Source: Escherichia coli
Lineage (GTDB): Bacteria; Pseudomonadota; Gammaproteobacteria; Enterobacterales; Enterobacteriaceae
DNA: 64,000 bases
Assembly (NCBI RefSeq): GCF_003334405.1
Contig: NZ_QOWM01000009.1
Direction: 5' to 3' (one strand)
Shown here: piece after piece, positions 2,684 to 16,580 of the stretch
Numbering within the stretch: position 1 is the first letter of the stretch
How the letters are laid out: the number at the start of each line of letters is the position of its first letter
Position numbers and translations under genes: made by a program
Notes under the pieces: model-generated
What the model was told of the DNA's origin: nothing
What the model saw: the letters and a program-made list of their open reading frames with translations, nothing else
Database searches by the model: none

Positions 2684-4408
2684 ATGGATAACGTTGAACT
2701 TTCACCCGCAACACGCTGGGGGATGATTGCTACCGGATTACTTCAGGGTCTGGTTTGCTACCTGCTGATCGCCTGGCTTTCCGGAAAAAATCACAGTTGG
2801 ATTGTTTATGGCGTGCCTGCGACCGTCGCGTTTTCATCCGTTTTACTCTTCTCCGTGATCTCTTTTAAACAGAAGCGCCTTTGGGGATGGCTGGCGCTAG
2901 TGTTTATTGCCACGCTGGGGATGAGCGGCTGGCTGAAGTGGCAAACTGATGGCATGAACCCCTGGAGAGCTGAAAAGGCGCTTTGGGATTTTGGTTGCTA
3001 TCTGCTGTTGATGGCAATGTTGTTGCTACCGTGGATACAACAAAGCCTTCGCATCCGCAATGACAGTAGCCGCTATCGCTATTTTTACCAGTCAGTATGG
3101 CATAACGTACTTATATTACTGGTGATTTTTCTCGCCAATGGCTTGACGTGGCTGGTGCTTTTACTGTGGAGTGAGTTGTTTAAACTTGTTGGCATCACGT
3201 TTTTCAATACGCTCTTTTTTGCAACCGACTGGTTTATTTATCTCACGTTAGGTCTGGTTACCGCGCTGGCGGTGATCCTCGCGCGAACACAGTCACGTTT
3301 AATCGACTCTATTCAAAAGTTGTTCACGTTAATCGCCACGGGGTTGCTGCCGTTAGTATCATTGCTAACCCTGATGTTTATCATCACCCTGCCGTTTACG
3401 GGCCTGAGCGCGATTTCTCGCCACATCTCCGCCGCCGGGTTGCTGTTGACGCTGGCCTTTTTGCAATTGATCTTAATGGCTATTGTCCGCGATCCGCAAA
3501 AAGCGTCACTTCCCTGGACAGGGCCGTTGCGTTGCCTGATTAAAACCGCTTTGCTGGTTGCTCCGCTGTATGTGTTCGTCGCCGCCTGGGCGTTATGGCT
3601 GCGGGTCGCTCAGTACGGCTGGACTGTCGACCGCTTGCAGGGCGTGCTGGCGGTGCTGGTGTTACTGGTGTGGTCGCTGGGGTATTTTGTCAGCATCGTC
3701 TGGCGTAAAGGGCAAAATCCCGTTGTTCTTCAGGGCAAAGTGAACCTTGCGGTTTCGTTATTGGTGTTGGTGATACTGGTGCTTCTTAATTCGCCGGTGC
3801 TGGACAGTATGCGCATTAGCGTGAACAGCCATATGGCGCGTTATCAGAGCGGCAAAAACACGTCAGACCAGGTAACTATCTACATGCTCGAGCAGAGCGG
3901 TCGCTATGGACGTGCTGCGCTTGAGTCGCTGAAAAGCGATGCCGGGTTTATGAAAGACCCGAAACGCGCGCGGGATCTGCTGATGGCGTTAGATGGAGAG
4001 CAACATCTTCAGCAACAGGTATCGGAAAAAGTATTAGCCGATAATGTGTTAATTGCCCCTGGTTCTGTTAAACCTGATGCGACATTCTGGTCGGCCTTAA
4101 TCCAGGATCGCTATAACGTGATGACCTGTATTGAAAAAGACGCCTGCGTCCTGGTCGAGCAAGATCTGAATAGTGATGGTCAGGCGGAGCGGATCCTGTT
4201 TGCTTTTAATGATGACAGAGTCATTGTCTATGGCTTTGACTCAGACAGAAAAGAATGGGACGCGCTTGATATGAGTTTACTTCCGAACGAAATAACGAAA
4301 GAAAAATTACTCACAGCTGCGAAGGATGGAAAACTGGGGACGAAGCCTAAAGCGTGGCGCGATCTTGTAGTGGATGGTGAAAGGCTGAATGTGAATCTGA
4401 ATGAGTGA
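2684..4408 (+). CDS. yhgE: Polytopic inner-membrane protein of unknown function
   Basis: 574-aa ORF with ATG start; many hydrophobic segments followed by a soluble C-terminal domain. Confidence 0.85.
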
Positions 4409-9699: not shown

Positions 9700-12252
9700 T
9701 CAGAACAATTCCTGTGCCTCGCCATTATCGATAATGGTCGTTCCCACCTCGTGCACTGCCTGTTGTGTCGGCTGCGTACCTTCGATGAAATACTCTTCGC
9801 GGCTGTTGCCACCATTAGCTAACTGCCCGGTGCTGCGATCGATATTCACCGTCACAATACCCGGTGGCGGCGTCAGCGGCTGCTCCGGCACACCTTCAAG
9901 AACGGCTTTCATATAAGCGTCCCATGCAGGCTGGGCACTCTTGGCACCGCCTTCGTAACCTGAGATCTGATCTTTAATCGCTCCGGAAGCCGTTGTATGA
10001 CCGAGATTACGACGGTGATCATCAAAGCCAATCCAGACCGAGGTCACAACGCCCGGACCGTAACCCGAGAACCACGCATCTTTCGAACTGTTAGTGGTCC
10101 CGGTTTTCCCGCCGATATCGCGACGCTGCAAATCACGACCTGCACGCCAGCCAGTACCCTGCCAGCCTGGCTCACCAAAGATATTGGTGTTCAAAGCACT
10201 CTTAATCAGGAATGCCAGCGGAGTGTTGATGACGTGCGGTGCGTACTCCTGCGCGCCAGTCTTCGCCACTAACGCCTGATTTGCCTGCTCCAGCTGCGGC
10301 ATTGGTACAGAAACATTCTGCTGCTCGCGGGAGATAGCGACATCTTCAACATCGTTATTTTCCAGCACGTTCGATTTCTGCGTATCACCGTAAATCACCG
10401 GAATATCGCATTCCGGGCAGGCTACTTTCGGTTTCGCTTCGAAAATCACGCCGCCCTGATCGTTTTCAATTTTGCTGATAAACCACGGGTCCACCAGGAA
10501 GCCGCCGTTCGCCATGACCGCGTAGCCGCGCGCCACCTGCATTGGGGTGAAGGACGCTGAACCCAGCGCCAGCGATTCGGTGTGGACAATGTTTTGTGCC
10601 GGGAAGCCGAAGCGTTGCAGATATTCTGCAGCGTAGTCGACGCCCATCGCCCGCATTGCGCGTACCATCACCACGTTTTTCGACTGACCCAGCCCCTGAC
10701 GTAAGCGAATTGGACCAGCATACTGCGGTGGTGAGTTCTTCGGCTGCCAGTCAGAACCGGCACTTGCATCCCAGCGAGAAATTGGCACATCGTTCAACAT
10801 ACTTGCCAGCGTCAGACCTTTATCCATCGCCGCGGTGTAGAGGAACGGTTTGATGTTGGAACCCACCTGACGCAGTGCCTGGGTGGCGCGGTTAAACTTG
10901 CTCTGATTGAAATCAAAGCCACCGACCAGCGCCATAACGGCACCGTTTTGCGGATTGATCGACACCAGCGCCGAGTTCACTTCCGGCACTTGTGCCAGCC
11001 ACCATGCATCGCCAACCTGACGAACCCAGATTTGCTGACCCGTTTGCAGAACATCGGTCACTTTACGCGGCGTCGGTCCTTGCTGAGTATCCGAACGGTA
11101 AGGACGCGCCCAGCGAACGCCTTCCATACTCAATGCGACGGTCGACCCGTCCGCCAGCATCGCCGTCGCTTGCTGAGGATTGGCGCTGGTGACTGCGGCA
11201 GGCAGCAGCGGACCATAGGTTGGCAGCGCCTTCAGCGTATCGGTAATCTTGTTGTTATCCCACGCCGACTCGCCCACTTTCCACAGCACATTTGCCGGGC
11301 CGCGATAGCCGTGGCGCATGTCGTAGTCCAGCACGTTATTACGTACCGCCTGCTGCGCGGCCTGCTGCACTTTGCGGGTGATGGTGGTGTAAATGCGATA
11401 ACCGTCTTCATAGGCACTTTCGCCATAACGGTTATACATCTCCTGGCGCACCATTTCGCTCAGGTACGGCGCAGAGAAAGCAATCTCCGGCGCGTGATAG
11501 TTAGCGTTAATCGCCTCAGTGCGTGTCTGATCGAACTGTTGTTGGGTGATATACCCTTCATCCAGCATCCGCGACAGCACGACGTTACGCCGCGCGACGG
11601 CACGATCCATCGAGTAGAGCGGGTTGAAGGTGGAAGGCGCTTTCGGCAGCCCGGCTATCACCGCCATTTCGTTCAGCGTCAGTTGGTCGACCGTTTTTCC
11701 GAAATAGACTTGTGCCGCAGCACCGACACCATAGGCGCGGTAACCAAGGTAAATCTTGTTCAGATAAAGCTCGAGGATCTCGTCTTTCGTCAGCAGCTGT
11801 TCAATGCGAATCGCGAGGAAGACTTCCTTAATCTTACGCATCAGCGTGCGTTCTGGACTGAGGAAGAAGTTTCTCGCCAGCTGCTGGGTAATGGTACTTG
11901 CCCCTTGTGACGCGTGACCGGAGAACAGCGCCACGCTTGCTGCACGGAAGATCCCCACCGGGTCAACGCCGTGATGCTCGTAGAAGCGGCTGTCTTCTGT
12001 CGCGATAAAGGCTTTCACCATCTCCGGTGGGATTTGATCCAACGTAACCGGAATACGACGTTTCTCACCGTATTGAGCAATCAGCTCGCCATCGGCGCTG
12101 TAAATCTGCATCGGAATTTGCAGGCGAACATCTTTTAATGTCGCCACATCCGGCAGTTGTGGCTCGATGTAGCGGTATAGGCCATAAATCGAGCCTGCTC
12201 CCAGCAGAATGCAACAGACTGCAAGGATCAAAAAATACTTTACGAACTTCAC
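9700..12252 (-). CDS. mrcA: Penicillin-binding protein 1A (bifunctional transglycosylase/transpeptidase)
   Basis: Glycosyltransferase motif EDSRFYEHHGVD and transpeptidase SxxK; 850 aa from a GTG at 12250-12252; ORF track extends to 12276. Confidence 0.93.
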   Translation of the reverse strand: MKFVKYFLILAVCCILLGAGSIYGLYRYIEPQLPDVATLKDVRLQIPMQIYSADGELIAQYGEKRRIPVTLDQIPPEMVKAFIATEDSRFYEHHGVDPVGIFRAASVALFSGHASQGASTITQQLARNFFLSPERTLMRKIKEVFLAIRIEQLLTKDEILELYLNKIYLGYRAYGVGAAAQVYFGKTVDQLTLNEMAVIAGLPKAPSTFNPLYSMDRAVARRNVVLSRMLDEGYITQQQFDQTRTEAINANYHAPEIAFSAPYLSEMVRQEMYNRYGESAYEDGYRIYTTITRKVQQAAQQAVRNNVLDYDMRHGYRGPANVLWKVGESAWDNNKITDTLKALPTYGPLLPAAVTSANPQQATAMLADGSTVALSMEGVRWARPYRSDTQQGPTPRKVTDVLQTGQQIWVRQVGDAWWLAQVPEVNSALVSINPQNGAVMALVGGFDFNQSKFNRATQALRQVGSNIKPFLYTAAMDKGLTLASMLNDVPISRWDASAGSDWQPKNSPPQYAGPIRLRQGLGQSKNVVMVRAMRAMGVDYAAEYLQRFGFPAQNIVHTESLALGSASFTPMQVARGYAVMANGGFLVDPWFISKIENDQGGVIFEAKPKVACPECDIPVIYGDTQKSNVLENNDVEDVAISREQQNVSVPMPQLEQANQALVAKTGAQEYAPHVINTPLAFLIKSALNTNIFGEPGWQGTGWRAGRDLQRRDIGGKTGTTNSSKDAWFSGYGPGVVTSVWIGFDDHRRNLGHTTASGAIKDQISGYEGGAKSAQPAWDAYMKAVLEGVPEQPLTPPPGIVTVNIDRSTGQLANGGNSREEYFIEGTQPTQQAVHEVGTTIIDNGEAQELF

Positions 12253-12371
12253 TGGAAATTTCCCATTTAGTTTCATTTGGGCAGTTTATAAACAAACGCG
12301 CGGTAGTATAAAGGCAAGCCAGACGCATTGATATACCCGTCAGAGTGACGGGTGATAAGGAGATCATCACA

Positions 12372-13151
12372 ATGGCATTTAAGATCTGGCAAATTGGTTT
12401 GCATTTACAACAGCAAGAAGCGGTAGCGGTTGCGATCGTGCGGGGCGCAAAAGAATGCTTTTTGCAACGCTGGTGGCGGTTGCCGCTGGAGAACGACATT
12501 ATCAAAGATGGGCGGATTGTTGATGCGCAGCAGCTGGCTAAAACGTTGTTACCGTGGAGTCGCGAACTGCCGCAGCGTCATCACATTATGTTGGCGTTTC
12601 CCGCCAGTCGCACATTACAGCGGTCATTTCCGCGCCCGTCGATGTCCCTTGGTGAGCGGGAGCAAACGGCCTGGCTGTCAGGGACGATGGCCCGCGAGCT
12701 GGATATGGATCCGGACTCCCTGCGCTTCGATTACAGCGAAGACTCACTCAGTCCCGCCTATAACGTGACTGCCGCGCAAAGCAAAGAGCTGGCAACGCTG
12801 CTTACTCTGGCAGAAAGGTTGCGTGTTCATGTGAGCGCGATCACCCCGGATGCCAGTGCATTACAGCGATTCCTGCCTTTTTTACCTTCTCATCAGCAAT
12901 GTCTGGCCTGGCGTGATAACGAACAGTGGCTGTGGGCGACGCGCTATAGCTGGGGGCGCAAACTGGCGGTGGGGATGACTAGCGCGAAGGAGCTGGCGGC
13001 AGCGTTATCCGTTGATCCCGAAAGCGTCGCGATATGTGGCGAAGGCGGATTTGATCCCTGGGAGGCCGTTTCTGTTCGTCAGCCGCCGCTACCGCCGCCA
13101 GGTGGAGACTTTGCCATCGCGCTGGGGCTGGCGCTTGGGAAGGCGTACTGA
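12372..13151 (+). CDS. hofM: PilM-like type IV pilus / DNA-uptake assembly protein
   Basis: First gene of a pilMNOPQ-like operon divergent from mrcA; start set at MAFKIWQIG (259 aa). Confidence 0.8.
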   Translation: MAFKIWQIGLHLQQQEAVAVAIVRGAKECFLQRWWRLPLENDIIKDGRIVDAQQLAKTLLPWSRELPQRHHIMLAFPASRTLQRSFPRPSMSLGEREQTAWLSGTMARELDMDPDSLRFDYSEDSLSPAYNVTAAQSKELATLLTLAERLRVHVSAITPDASALQRFLPFLPSHQQCLAWRDNEQWLWATRYSWGRKLAVGMTSAKELAAALSVDPESVAICGEGGFDPWEAVSVRQPPLPPPGGDFAIALGLALGKAY

Positions 13152-13690
13152 TGAACCCGCCAATTAATTTTTTGCCCTGGCGACAGCAACGCCGGACCGC
13201 TTTTCTGCGTTTCTGGTTGCTGATGTTCGTTGCGCCTCTGCTGCTGGCCGTCGGGATAACGCTAATACTGCGTCTGACAGGCAGCGCCGAAGCGCGCATA
13301 GACGCAGTTTTGCTTCAGGCGGAACAACAACTCGCCCGCAGCTTACAGATAACGAAGCCACGTTTGCTGGAGCAACAGCAGTTACGCGAACAGCGTTCGC
13401 AACGGCAGCGCCAGCGACAATTTACCCGCGACTGGCAATCTGCGCTGGAAGCACTGGCGGCGCTTTTACCCGAGCACGCCTGGCTGACAACGATAAGCTG
13501 GCAGCAGGGAACGCTGGAGATCAAGGGGCTGACAACAAGCATTACCGCGTTAAACGCACTAGAAACGTCACTCCGCCAGGATGCATCTTTTCATCTCAAT
13601 CAGCGGGGAGCCACGCAGCAGGATGCGCAGGGACGCTGGCAATTTGAGTATCAGTTAACAAGGAAGGTTAGCGATGAACATGTTCTTTGA
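13151..13690 (+). CDS. hofN: PilN-like membrane protein
   Basis: ATG overlaps the hofM stop (ATGA); N-terminal TM helix then a coiled-coil-like region. Confidence 0.8.
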   Translation: MNPPINFLPWRQQRRTAFLRFWLLMFVAPLLLAVGITLILRLTGSAEARIDAVLLQAEQQLARSLQITKPRLLEQQQLREQRSQRQRQRQFTRDWQSALEALAALLPEHAWLTTISWQQGTLEIKGLTTSITALNALETSLRQDASFHLNQRGATQQDAQGRWQFEYQLTRKVSDEHVL

Positions 13691-14114
13691 CTGGTGGTTC
13701 GCCACATCACCCCGCCTCCGCCAGCTTTGCTGGGCATTCTGGTTGCTGATGTTAGTTACGCTCATTTTTCTGTCATCGACACACCATGAAGAGCGCGACG
13801 CATTAATTCGACTACGGGCAAGTCATCACCAGCAGTGGGCCGCACTGTATCGCCTGGTAGACACCACTCCCTTCAGCGAGGAAAAAACGCTGCCCTTTTC
13901 GCCACTGGATTTTCAGTTATCCGGCGCGCAACTGGTTTCCTGGCATCCATCCGCGCAGGGAGGCGAGTTGGCGTTGAAAACGCTGTGGGAAGCAGTGCCG
14001 TCGGCATTTACACGGCTGGCAGAGCGCAACGTCAGCGTGAGCCGTTTTTCGTTAAGCGTGGAAGGTGATGATCTTTTGTTCACGCTACAACTGGAGACGC
14101 CGCATGAGGGTTAA
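13674..14114 (+). CDS. hofO: PilO-like membrane protein
   Basis: Overlaps hofN by 17 nt; N-terminal TM helix. Confidence 0.78.
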   Translation: MNMFFDWWFATSPRLRQLCWAFWLLMLVTLIFLSSTHHEERDALIRLRASHHQQWAALYRLVDTTPFSEEKTLPFSPLDFQLSGAQLVSWHPSAQGGELALKTLWEAVPSAFTRLAERNVSVSRFSLSVEGDDLLFTLQLETPHEG

Positions 14115-14508
14115 ACGCTGGTTGTTGGCAGGTATTGCATTGTGCCTTTTAACCGGTATGCGTGACCCTTTTAAACCGCCGGAAGATCTATGCCGGATTA
14201 GCGAACTTAGCCAGTGGCGCTATCAGGGGATGGTAGGGCGAGGCGAGCGCATCATCGGTGTAATAAAAGACGGGCAAAAGAAATGGCGACGGGTGCAGCA
14301 AAACGATGTGCTGGAAAACGGCTGGACAATTTTACAGCTGACGCCAGACGTACTAACGCTGGGTACCGGGACAAACTGCGAACCGCCACAATGGTTGTGG
14401 CAACGGCAAGGAGATACAAATGAAGCAATGGATAGCCGCACTACTGTTGATGCTGATACCCGGCGTACAGGCGGCAAAGCCGCAAAAAGTGACGCTGATG
14501 GTGGATGA
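14104..14508 (+). CDS. hofP: PilP-like lipoprotein
   Basis: Start set at MRVKRWLLAGIALCLLTGM (signal peptide with lipobox-like C); 134 aa. Confidence 0.75.
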   Translation: MRVKRWLLAGIALCLLTGMRDPFKPPEDLCRISELSQWRYQGMVGRGERIIGVIKDGQKKWRRVQQNDVLENGWTILQLTPDVLTLGTGTNCEPPQWLWQRQGDTNEAMDSRTTVDADTRRTGGKAAKSDADGG

Positions 14509-15658
14509 CGTTCCGGTAGCTCAGGTGTTGCAGGCGCTGGCTGAACAGGAGAAGTTGAACCTGGTCGTGTCGCCAGACGTCAGCGGTACGGTGTCGTTAC
14601 ATCTAACAGATGTTCCCTGGAAGCAGGCACTACAAACTGTAGTGAAAAGCGCCGGACTGATAACGCGGCAGGAAGGCAACATTCTCTCAGTGCATTCCAT
14701 TGCCTGGCAGAATAACAATATCGCCCGCCAGGAGGCGGAGCAGGCGCGGGCGCAGGCAAATCTGCCGCTGGAAAATCGCAGTATAACCCTGCAATACGCC
14801 GACGCGGGAGAACTGGCGAAAGCGGGGGAGAAGCTACTGAGTGCCAAAGGGAGTATGACCGTCGATAAACGCACCAATCGCCTTTTGCTACGAGATAACA
14901 AAACGGCGTTAAGCGCGCTTGAACAGTGGGTAGCGCAAATGGATCTGCCGGTCGGGCAGGTTGAGCTGTCGGCGCATATTGTCACCATTAATGAAAAAAG
15001 TTTGCGTGAGTTAGGCGTGAAATGGACGCTGGCCGATGCGCAACACGCTGGTGGCGTTGGGCAAGTCACCACGCTTGGTAGCGACCTCTCCGTAGCGACG
15101 GCGACAACGCATGTCGGTTTTAACATTGGGCGCATCAACGGACGCTTGCTGGATCTTGAGCTTTCCGCGCTCGAACAAAAACAGCAGCTGGATATTATCG
15201 CCAGTCCGCGTCTGCTGGCCTCACATCTTCAGCCTGCCAGCATTAAACAGGGGAGCGAAATTCCATATCAGGTTTCCAGCGGGGAAAGTGGCGCGACGTC
15301 GGTGGAATTTAAAGAGGCCGTCCTGGGGATGGAGGTCACGCCCACGGTGTTACAAAAAGGTCGCATCCGGCTGAAATTACACATCAGCCAGAACGTTCCG
15401 GGGCAGGTGCTACAGCAGGCCGATGGCGAAGTGCTGGCGATTGATAAGCAGGAGATCGAAACGCAGGTCGAGGTCAAAAGCGGAGAAACGTTGGCGCTGG
15501 GCGGCATTTTTACCCGTAAAAATAAATCGGGTCAGGATAGCGTACCGTTGCTTGGCGACATTCCCTGGTTCGGGCAATTATTTCGTCATGACGGAAAAGA
15601 AGATGAACGACGCGAGTTAGTGGTGTTTATCACGCCACGACTGGTTTCCAGTGAGTAA
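14420..15658 (+). CDS. hofQ: Outer-membrane secretin (PilQ/ComE-like)
   Basis: 412-aa ORF with signal peptide and secretin C-terminal region; AAGGAG SD; overlaps hofP by 89 nt. Confidence 0.9.
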   Translation: MKQWIAALLLMLIPGVQAAKPQKVTLMVDDVPVAQVLQALAEQEKLNLVVSPDVSGTVSLHLTDVPWKQALQTVVKSAGLITRQEGNILSVHSIAWQNNNIARQEAEQARAQANLPLENRSITLQYADAGELAKAGEKLLSAKGSMTVDKRTNRLLLRDNKTALSALEQWVAQMDLPVGQVELSAHIVTINEKSLRELGVKWTLADAQHAGGVGQVTTLGSDLSVATATTHVGFNIGRINGRLLDLELSALEQKQQLDIIASPRLLASHLQPASIKQGSEIPYQVSSGESGATSVEFKEAVLGMEVTPTVLQKGRIRLKLHISQNVPGQVLQQADGEVLAIDKQEIETQVEVKSGETLALGGIFTRKNKSGQDSVPLLGDIPWFGQLFRHDGKEDERRELVVFITPRLVSSE

Positions 15659-15919
15659 ACAGCCGTAAAAGCGGTAATGTTTTTACGCTGAACGTGTTTC
15701 ATCTATTTGACGCGCGCAGGTATTTAGCATACAAGGAGTACCGATTTGAGAGTTGGTGCTCTTCGCTGCCTGCGTTCCATGATGATGATTTATCATTCAG
15801 GCGGCATTTTGCTGTCTTTTTTACGCTAATCTTACCCGGTGATTTATCGCCAGAGCGGTGGTAGCAAGGCAGCGCGCTTGCAGCGACCAGATATGCAGAG
15901 GGATGGGTGATTTATTCAG

Positions 15920-15949
15920 TTGCCAAACCCGCTGGAGTATTGAGATAAT
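15920..15949 (+). promoter_or_regulatory. Candidate sigma70 promoter for aroK
   Basis: TTGCCA (15920-15925), 18-bp spacer, GATAAT (15944-15949), about 110 bp upstream of the aroK ATG. Confidence 0.3.
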
Positions 15950-16058
15950 TTTCAGTCTGACTCTCGCAATATCTTATGAGGTTTCAGTTCATGTCCTGCG
16001 GCGCTCTCTGAGCGAAGCGGGTTTATCATTAACGAATAGTCTTAGTAGTACCGAAAAA

Positions 16059-16580
16059 ATGGCAGAGAAACGCAATATCTTTCTGGTTGGGCCTATGGGT
16101 GCCGGAAAAAGCACTATTGGGCGCCAGTTAGCTCAACAACTCAATATGGAATTTTACGATTCCGATCAAGAGATTGAGAAACGAACCGGAGCTGATGTGG
16201 GCTGGGTTTTCGATTTAGAAGGCGAAGAAGGCTTCCGCGATCGCGAAGAAAAGGTCATCAATGAGTTGACCGAGAAACAGGGTATTGTGCTGGCTACTGG
16301 CGGCGGCTCTGTGAAATCCCGTGAAACGCGTAACCGTCTTTCCGCTCGTGGCGTTGTCGTTTATCTTGAAACGACCATCGAAAAGCAACTTGCACGCACG
16401 CAGCGTGATAAAAAACGCCCGTTGCTGCACGTTGAAACACCGCCGCGTGAAGTTCTGGAAGCGTTGGCCAATGAACGCAATCCGCTGTATGAAGAGATTG
16501 CCGACGTGACCATTCGTACTGATGATCAAAGCGCTAAAGTGGTTGCAAACCAGATTATTCACATGCTGGAAAGCAACTAA
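16059..16580 (+). CDS. aroK: Shikimate kinase I
   Basis: Walker [10 protein letters not shown]; 173 aa from ATG at 16059 ([11 protein letters not shown]..); ORF-track start 15858 is a 67-codon extension. Confidence 0.95.

Follow-up and report, generated by a model that had tools for sequence, protein, structure and literature searches.

The hofMNOPQ operon of Escherichia coli and the 89-nt overlap of hofP and hofQ

The stretch of Escherichia coli DNA considered here (contig NZ_QOWM01000009.1; 64,000 nt, hereafter the window, whose coordinates are used throughout) contains the hofMNOPQ operon, and the region analysed covers 12253-15658 (3406 nt). Five co-directional genes stand in the order M-N-O-P-Q, with all frames intact in both the open reading frame (ORF) list and the sequence. 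The locus is the known E. coli operon formerly called yrfDCBA-hofQ (yrfD-yrfC-yrfB-yrfA-hofQ; b3395-b3391). It is 100% identical over 3406 nt to NZ_CP019629, an MG1655 derivative, and the RefSeq coding-sequence boundaries and names in this best K-12 match are those of the same five hof genes, overlaps included; the two loci do not differ in sequence or gene boundaries, and the 89-nt overlap of hofP and hofQ is present in both. An earlier note on this DNA had described an intact, tightly packed hofMNOPQ, and the five intact genes with boundaries matching the RefSeq annotation bear this out. In the window the operon is oriented in reverse relative to MG1655, with divergent mrcA upstream (annotated GTG start 12252) and aroK-aroB downstream. 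The five genes are as follows.

12372-13151, plus strand: hofM, 259 aa; PilM-like cytoplasmic protein of predicted actin fold, shorter than PilM.
13151-13690, plus strand: hofN, 179 aa; PilN-like bitopic protein.
13674-14114, plus strand: hofO, 146 aa; occupies the PilO position.
14104-14508, plus strand: hofP, 134 aa; signal peptide, PilP/GspC-HR-like beta domain (residues ~30-104) and predicted disordered tail (~106-134).
14420-15658, plus strand: hofQ, 412 aa; outer-membrane secretin (DNA uptake porin).

The hofP start is ATG 14104; the mechanical ORF opens earlier, at GTG 14065. Among complete E. coli genomes the locus was found in 5426 of 5426, with presence defined as at least 95% identity and at least 80% coverage. 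For wider comparison we sampled 80 loci, one genome per species across the Enterobacteriaceae. Orthologues of all five Hof proteins and the gene order recur across the sampled genera, and the M-N-O-P-Q order is found in the 80 loci as well as in two distant ones.

The junctions between the genes are tight, and most are as the earlier note had given them: the overlaps of 17 nt between hofN and hofO and of 11 nt between hofO and hofP are present in the sequence, as is the out-of-frame overlap of 89 nt between hofP and hofQ (14420-14508), in which the hofQ frame is the hofP frame +1 ((14420-14104) mod 3 = 1). The exception is hofM/hofN, which the note read as ATGA with a 4-nt overlap. The junction is TGATGA (13149-13154) and the overlap is 1 nt, of the TGATG type: hofM ends at the first TGA (13149-13151), and the hofN ATG (13151-13153) straddles tandem stop codons, TGA TGA. 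The string ATGA appears there because a second in-frame TGA follows the true hofM stop. Shine-Dalgarno-like sequences precede each of the first four genes (AAGGAG before hofM, GGGAAGG before hofN, AAGGAAGG before hofO and GGAG before hofP). A stop within a few nucleotides of a start, the geometry of termination-reinitiation, is found only at hofM/hofN (1 nt), and hofN/hofO (17 nt) and hofO/hofP (11 nt) are intermediate. At the hofP/hofQ junction two features matter.

14408-14413, plus strand: hofQ Shine-Dalgarno sequence AAGGAG, 6 nt before the ATG and within hofP codons (Q-G-D).
14420-14508, plus strand: putative dual-coding segment, in which hofQ codons 1-30, for the signal peptide and the beginning of N0, coincide with HofP residues 106-134 plus stop, one base out of frame.

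On sequence evidence, hofQ starts at the annotated position 14420 and the overlap is not a mis-called start. Consensus AAGGAG lies 6 nt upstream, and the first codons encode a typical signal peptide, MKQWIAALLLMLIPGVQA, with cleavage predicted before AK. The full protein matches the HofQ model NF007851 at 855 bits (cut-off 598), aligned over residues 1-412, and alignments to structural homologues open at HofQ residue ~22-27, where the N0 domain follows immediately on the predicted cleavage site. The 80 Enterobacteriaceae loci have a Shine-Dalgarno-like site, a start codon and a signal peptide at the equivalent position, and nearly all of them carry AAGGAG, AGGGAG or AAGGAA upstream. The earlier note had offered a dilemma, either an unusual translational coupling or an internal hofQ start that it could not resolve, and these same observations dissolve it. 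Internal initiation would mean that hofQ begins after the hofP stop, past 14508, and that no true overlap exists; the unusual length of the annotated overlap, and nothing else, invites such a reading, for which hofQ offers in-frame ATG or GTG codons from codons 27-28 onwards. Initiation beyond 14508 would, however, deprive the protein of the signal peptide that an outer-membrane secretin requires for its export. The ribosome-binding site, the alignment from residue 1, the position of the N0 domain and the recurrence of start codon and signal peptide in 80 loci also speak against it. We consider an internal start extremely improbable.

The other half of the dilemma, that hofQ translation depends on ribosomes translating or terminating hofP, is unlikely as well. 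All five genes overlap or abut, as is typical of coupled operons, and ribosomes that read hofP necessarily cross the hofQ initiation region. Yet termination-reinitiation at hofP/hofQ is geometrically impossible because hofP terminates 89 nt beyond the start of hofQ, and hofQ has a strong Shine-Dalgarno sequence of its own. Folding of 14380-14520 likewise gave no significant RNA structure that would have to be unfolded or that would explain the region (z = -0.97), and related loci carry overlaps of anything from 4 to 140 nt.

Comparative sequences indicate a real overlap, ancestral within the family, rather than an accident of annotation. It measures 89 nt in 38 of the sampled loci and another length between 80 and 98 nt in 27, so that 65/80 fall within 80-98 nt. 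Longer overlaps of 122-140 nt occur in 3 loci and shorter ones of 38-77 nt in 9, and two Leclercia-like loci have an overlap of 4 nt in another frame. The genome of the type strain E. albertii NBRC 107761 (L004) has a premature stop in hofP (3185-3286 in that locus's own coordinates), and in a Citrobacter koseri locus (L039) the hofQ start could not be assigned. The end of the overlap is defined by a shared motif: the hofP TGA is formed by the T of GAT and the GA of the next codon in hofQ Val-Asp-Asp (GTG-GAT-GAC; Asp29-Asp30), at the start of N0. A HofQ protein search for distant relatives returned close relatives only and was uninformative; a HofP profile search of 1.84 billion representatives was used instead. 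The HofP family proved small (191 clusters), and two distant relatives share the mrcA-hofMNOPQ-aroK-aroB synteny and the +1 offset, with an overlap of ~68 nt.

Apart from the E. albertii stop, broken copies include a 517-aa HofP-HofQ fusion ORF (29 member sequences) that results from a 1-nt change within the overlap, and hofP-hofQ deletion fusions; P0075, P0060 and P0043 are such ORFs from some assemblies. These variants may reflect mutation or assembly error.

Whether the hofP frame is under constraint within the overlap is a separate question from whether the overlap is real. An open alternative frame is by itself unsurprising, because the hydrophobic codons of a signal peptide (NTN, N being any base) cannot form stops when read in the frame of hofP. 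Stops can arise at no more than ~4-7 codons per overlap, and synonymous-codon randomisation over the 29 codons left the frame open with a probability of 0.15-0.93, depending on the lineage. These numbers are one argument for a serious rival, in which the overlap is a neutral by-product: the hofQ start would have come to lie within the 3' end of hofP by chance, in a stop-poor frame, and the HofP tail would be translated but unselected junk. The tail is indeed disordered in the predicted structure (pLDDT, the model's per-residue confidence score, <50).

Codon usage points in the other direction. Stops in the hofP frame are fewer than expected in the overlap (12 observed vs 47.9 expected) and not in the hofQ body (1696 vs 1577). 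A depletion specific to stops was tried as an explanation and rejected: the control shows T to be low at third positions in every context, and because the depletion extends to contexts where no stop is possible, we read it as a general deficit of T at hofP first positions. At the third positions of hofQ codons, which serve as first positions in hofP, T was observed 120 times in the overlap against 351 expected, a threefold deficit (ratio 0.34), and the ratio is also 0.34 in contexts that cannot form stops. This ratio is 0.32-0.36 in 24 representatives whose signal peptides have diverged. Over the 30 codons that directly follow the hofP stop it is back at 1.01, and in the remainder of hofQ it is 1.00. 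No bias of this kind is seen in the non-overlapped signal peptide of hofP itself (0.82 vs 0.79 for the hofP body), and ten loci with short overlaps have T near expectation. Seen from hofP, T-initial codons make up 4.3% of the HofP tail vs 14.5% of the HofP domain; Phe, Tyr, Cys, Trp and the Ser codons TCN are thus avoided in the tail.

The end point of the hofP frame shows a similar preference. GAT, which creates the hofP stop, is used at the first Asp of the Val-Asp-Asp motif in 73/79 loci (92%) vs 65% for other Asp codons, and the frame is open as far as the motif in 19/24 of the diverged representatives vs 13.8 expected. In the window, the hofQ signal peptide in 14420-14508 uses rare A-ending codons (ATA twice, CTA once), and the only T-ending codon among the first 30 of hofQ is the GAT that creates the hofP stop. 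The T deficit spans the whole overlap, is absent from the signal peptide of hofP and disappears right after the hofP stop, which speaks against a neutral origin.

Together the codon data amount to a coding-frame signature that the hofP frame shows within the overlap only, and we lean slightly towards a HofP tail that is translated and weakly selected for composition and for length or end point. The stronger proposal, that the 29-codon overlap is a dual-coding segment maintained across Enterobacterales, its hydrophilic disordered tail selected for both length and composition, is more tentative, with chances a little short of even. Several considerations pull against both. The tail is poorly conserved in sequence and is truncated or lost in about 12/80 loci (overlaps of 4, 38, 41, 59, 62 and 77 nt), which rules out an essential role; the genomes pooled in the codon statistics are related, and the 24 diverged representatives are not fully independent; and translation of the tail is read from sequence statistics only. 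A neutral by-product thus keeps a substantial, if lesser, share of our belief, about one chance in three, and the evidence for constraint on the tail frame, the only mildly new element at this locus, is best called a codon-level hint.

The proteins themselves are recognisable to different degrees. HofQ is assigned by curated models: in addition to the HofQ model, it matches TIGR02515 (PilQ) at 449 bits (cut-off 284), and among solved structures it comes closest to 6w6m (E 2e-74), an entry with the deposited name type IV pilus secretin PilQ family protein, which we take to be the V. cholerae competence-pilus secretin. In 6w6m the alignment begins at residue 158, in the Neisseria PilQ chains at ~322-338. 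Because it starts that far into them, HofQ is without the N-terminal extension of the longer PilQ chains, an extension that presumably consists of AMIN domains. HofN has a Pfam PilN match over residues 99-166 (E 3e-9) and begins MNPPINFLPWR; the motif (I/V)N(F/L)LPWR is kept in most of 32 orthologues. Binding of PilM by the N-terminal motif of PilN is established from the 2ych and 5eou complexes.

HofM and HofP were placed by comparison of predicted structures, HofM matching PilM, with its actin-like ATPase fold, and HofP matching the PilP/GspC fold, a beta-sandwich HR domain. The models thus lend structure-based support to HofM and HofP as counterparts of PilM and PilP despite their small size and divergence. 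For HofO, the only match was Pfam PF25319, 'HofO EspM-like domain' (E 2e-25); there was no PilO match by profile against solved structures, nor in NCBIfam. The earlier note's description of PilM/N/O/P-like assembly proteins and a secretin accordingly holds for HofQ by curated models, for HofN by domain and motif, and for HofM and HofP by model folds, while HofO is matched by PF25319 only. A lipobox cysteine is not conserved in HofP, whose sole N-terminal Cys, C14 (IALC), is replaced by L, F, M, I or T in orthologues; the conserved cysteines are C30 and C92, both within the domain.

Three groups of known systems are comparable. The five-gene order is shared with pilMNOPQ of type IVa pili (Pseudomonas aeruginosa, Myxococcus xanthus, Thermus thermophilus, Neisseria), and in Pseudomonas a divergent ponA/mrcA lies next to pilMNOPQ, as it does next to hofMNOPQ. 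The Hof proteins are nevertheless much smaller: HofM has 259 aa vs 333-355 residues in PilM chains, and HofQ has 412 aa without the PilQ extension. PilP is moreover a lipoprotein, whereas HofP has no conserved lipobox cysteine. In the type II secretion pair GspC-GspD, GspC is bitopic in the inner membrane and carries further domains, and HofQ scores 194 bits with the GspD model, under its cut-off of 351. The third group is the comABCDE genes of H. influenzae and the PilMNOPQ competence-pilus genes of V. cholerae, the PilQ-family entry 6w6m being the closest solved relative of HofQ. Here orthology and shared regulation by Sxy/TfoX and CRP-S sites have been reported (PMC1635313). E. coli differs from them in that no natural transformation has been observed unless sxy is expressed artificially (PMC3330819) and in that Enterobacteriaceae are predicted to have two CRP-S sites rather than one (PMC1635313).

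The regulatory region extends into mrcA. The earlier note had measured a mrcA/hofM spacer of 119 bp, which is right (12253-12371, counted from the annotated mrcA GTG 12252), and had suggested a search for a CRP-S site within it; the spacer contains background matches only, and the published CRP-binding fragment lies instead inside mrcA. The features are as follows.

12096-12221, plus strand: published yrfD (hofM) promoter fragment, CRP-binding, within the 5' coding part of divergent mrcA; the electrophoretic mobility shift assay (EMSA) primers yrfDF/yrfDR map here.
12104-12125, plus strand: candidate distal CRP-S site atcTGCATcggaatTTGCAggc, with C6 and G17; 3 mismatches to TGCGA-N6-TCGCA; its position fits the published -246.
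12185-12206, plus strand: candidate proximal CRP-S site taaATCGAgcctgcTCCCAgca, towards the opposite end of the EMSA fragment; 3 mismatches to TGCGA-N6-TTCCA.
12186-12335, no strand: conserved block, at least 90% at nearly every base of 76 aligned upstream regions.

Cameron and Redfield (2006) reported that CRP binds the yrfD fragment weakly and predicted two CRP-S sites 'at the ends', one of which a figure legend places at -246 from the start codon; Sxy raises yrfD (hofM) transcription 16-fold, dependent on CRP and cAMP (PMC1635313). We infer that 12104-12125 and 12185-12206 are these sites. Our searches used the H. influenzae motif TGCGA-N6-TCGCA and the motif quoted for E. coli, TGCGA-N6-TTCCA (PMC6728893), on the spacer, the whole window and 12040-12375, and returned matches with 3 mismatches only, at a background of ~8 per kb. 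The proximal candidate is almost invariant in 76 Enterobacteriaceae loci, including at synonymous mrcA positions. It falls at the edge of the conserved block, which covers the first ~22 mrcA codons (synonymous sites included) and most of the spacer; deeper into mrcA, conservation returns to the ordinary 3-periodic pattern of coding sequence. The hof proteins are far less conserved than the block (amino-acid identity of 42-88% for HofM and 31-89% for HofP), which is presumably a shared divergent promoter/leader region for mrcA and hofM. Were hofM transcribed from a start inside mrcA, its RNA would run antisense to the 5' end of mrcA.

Some further observations concern this region. A 7-bp hairpin, CCCGTCA-gag-TGACGGG (12336-12352), stands directly 5' of the hofM Shine-Dalgarno sequence. 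Most genera, though not all, have a comparable stem (CCGTC/GACGG), and a Klebsiella metagenome-assembled genome (L060) has an insertion of ~120 bp at the hairpin; RNAalifold gave no consensus for it, the stem being mostly conserved in sequence with no evidence of covariation. Rfam returned no match in the window at gathering thresholds. A weak, non-significant match to asponA, the RNA antisense to ponA (12098-12123, plus strand; 14.7 bits vs a gathering threshold of 113, E 0.35), coincides with the candidate distal CRP-S site. Finally, the mrcA ORF extends 8 codons upstream of the annotated GTG, to ATG 12276 (12253-12276, minus strand; 858 vs 850 aa). This ATG is not conserved in other genera (e.g., Enterobacter and Superficieibacter) and the GTG at 12250-12252 is, so the annotated mrcA start looks right.

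We propose that hofMNOPQ is the Enterobacteriaceae version of pilMNOPQ/comABCDE and would encode the alignment subcomplex and the outer-membrane channel of a type IVa pilus or DNA-uptake machine. HofM, a cytoplasmic protein of PilM fold, would be the docking partner of the INFLPWR sequence conserved at the HofN N-terminus; HofN and HofO would be bitopic inner-membrane proteins; HofP would provide a periplasmic domain of PilP/GspC-HR fold, the kind that binds the secretin N0 domain; and HofQ would be the secretin. From the literature, transcription would start at a weak CRP-S promoter inside divergent mrcA that needs cAMP-CRP and Sxy, and for this reason the operon would be nearly silent in ordinary culture. 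Each gene after the first would initiate on its own Shine-Dalgarno sequence within the preceding gene: hofQ would start at 14420 on AAGGAG, while hofP would be read through for 29 more codons to the TGA formed from Asp29-Asp30, so that in the overlap one frame would give the HofQ signal peptide and the other a hydrophilic, disordered HofP tail. Taken as a whole, a known operon with its annotated starts and a true dual-coding hofP/hofQ overlap is in our judgement highly probable. Two points count against it in addition to those raised for the tail: the sequence similarity of HofM and HofO to the Pil families, like that of HofP, is below curated thresholds, and the CRP-S sites cannot be called from the sequence above background.

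The name 'DNA utilization protein' reportedly goes back to a DNA-as-nutrient phenotype described by Palchevskiy and Finkel in 2006. The earlier note's remark that E. coli is not known to make this pilus in the laboratory needs qualification. Expression of the hof operon in ordinary culture is poor or undetectable (PMC1635313). Sxy induces yrfD, as noted above, and hofQ is required for Sxy-dependent DNA uptake by E. coli (PMC3330819). Low expression, together with occasional broken copies such as the premature hofP stop in E. albertii and the fusion or deletion ORFs P0075 and P0060, would suit a cryptic, decaying relic without function in present E. coli. Such decay is very improbable for a locus that is found in every complete E. 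coli genome, that keeps its order and all five orthologues across genera and that is induced through Sxy and CRP; besides its part in DNA uptake, hofQ contributes to kidney colonisation by uropathogenic E. coli, where its loss leaves a defect (PMC2649431).

A few features touch none of these subjects. A 25-nt direct repeat (13211-13235 and 13737-13761; 23/25 identical) lies in frame in hofN and hofO, where it gives FWLLMFVA and FWLLMLVT, respectively, within the membrane segments of the two proteins. It is confined to Escherichia (21/24 in E. whittamii), other genera being at background (14-17/24), and suggests a small gene-conversion or convergence event between neighbours. Within hofQ, a 205-aa ORF on the minus strand (14521-15138) most likely stays open by chance in coding DNA that is rich in G+C. 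Between hofQ and aroK lie ~400 bp of non-coding DNA (15659-16060) with three candidate sites, each kind occurring as often as expected from shuffled sequence.

15662-15675, plus strand: weak terminator-like hairpin directly after the hofQ stop, from a consensus scan; candidate only.
15799-15817, hofQ-aroK gap: second terminator-like hairpin.
15920-15949, hofQ-aroK gap: promoter-like site with 10/12 matches and an extended -10 TG, probably a candidate aroK promoter.

In summary, the locus carries little weight as a discovery. The literature already describes the operon, how Sxy and CRP-S sites control it and the part that HofQ plays in DNA uptake, and every E. coli annotation shows the overlap. 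The analysis removes the doubt about the hofQ start, places the regulatory sites outside the coordinates of the earlier note (12253-15658) and adds model-based structural support for HofM and HofP as PilM and PilP counterparts. If the hofP frame is indeed constrained, the HofP tail may act as a flexible spacer or as a contact to HofQ, peptidoglycan or DNA, and synonymous codon choice in the HofQ signal peptide, rare ATA and CTA codons included, would be constrained in turn. If confirmed, the overlap would be a tidy example of conserved bacterial dual coding that shapes the codon usage of a signal peptide.

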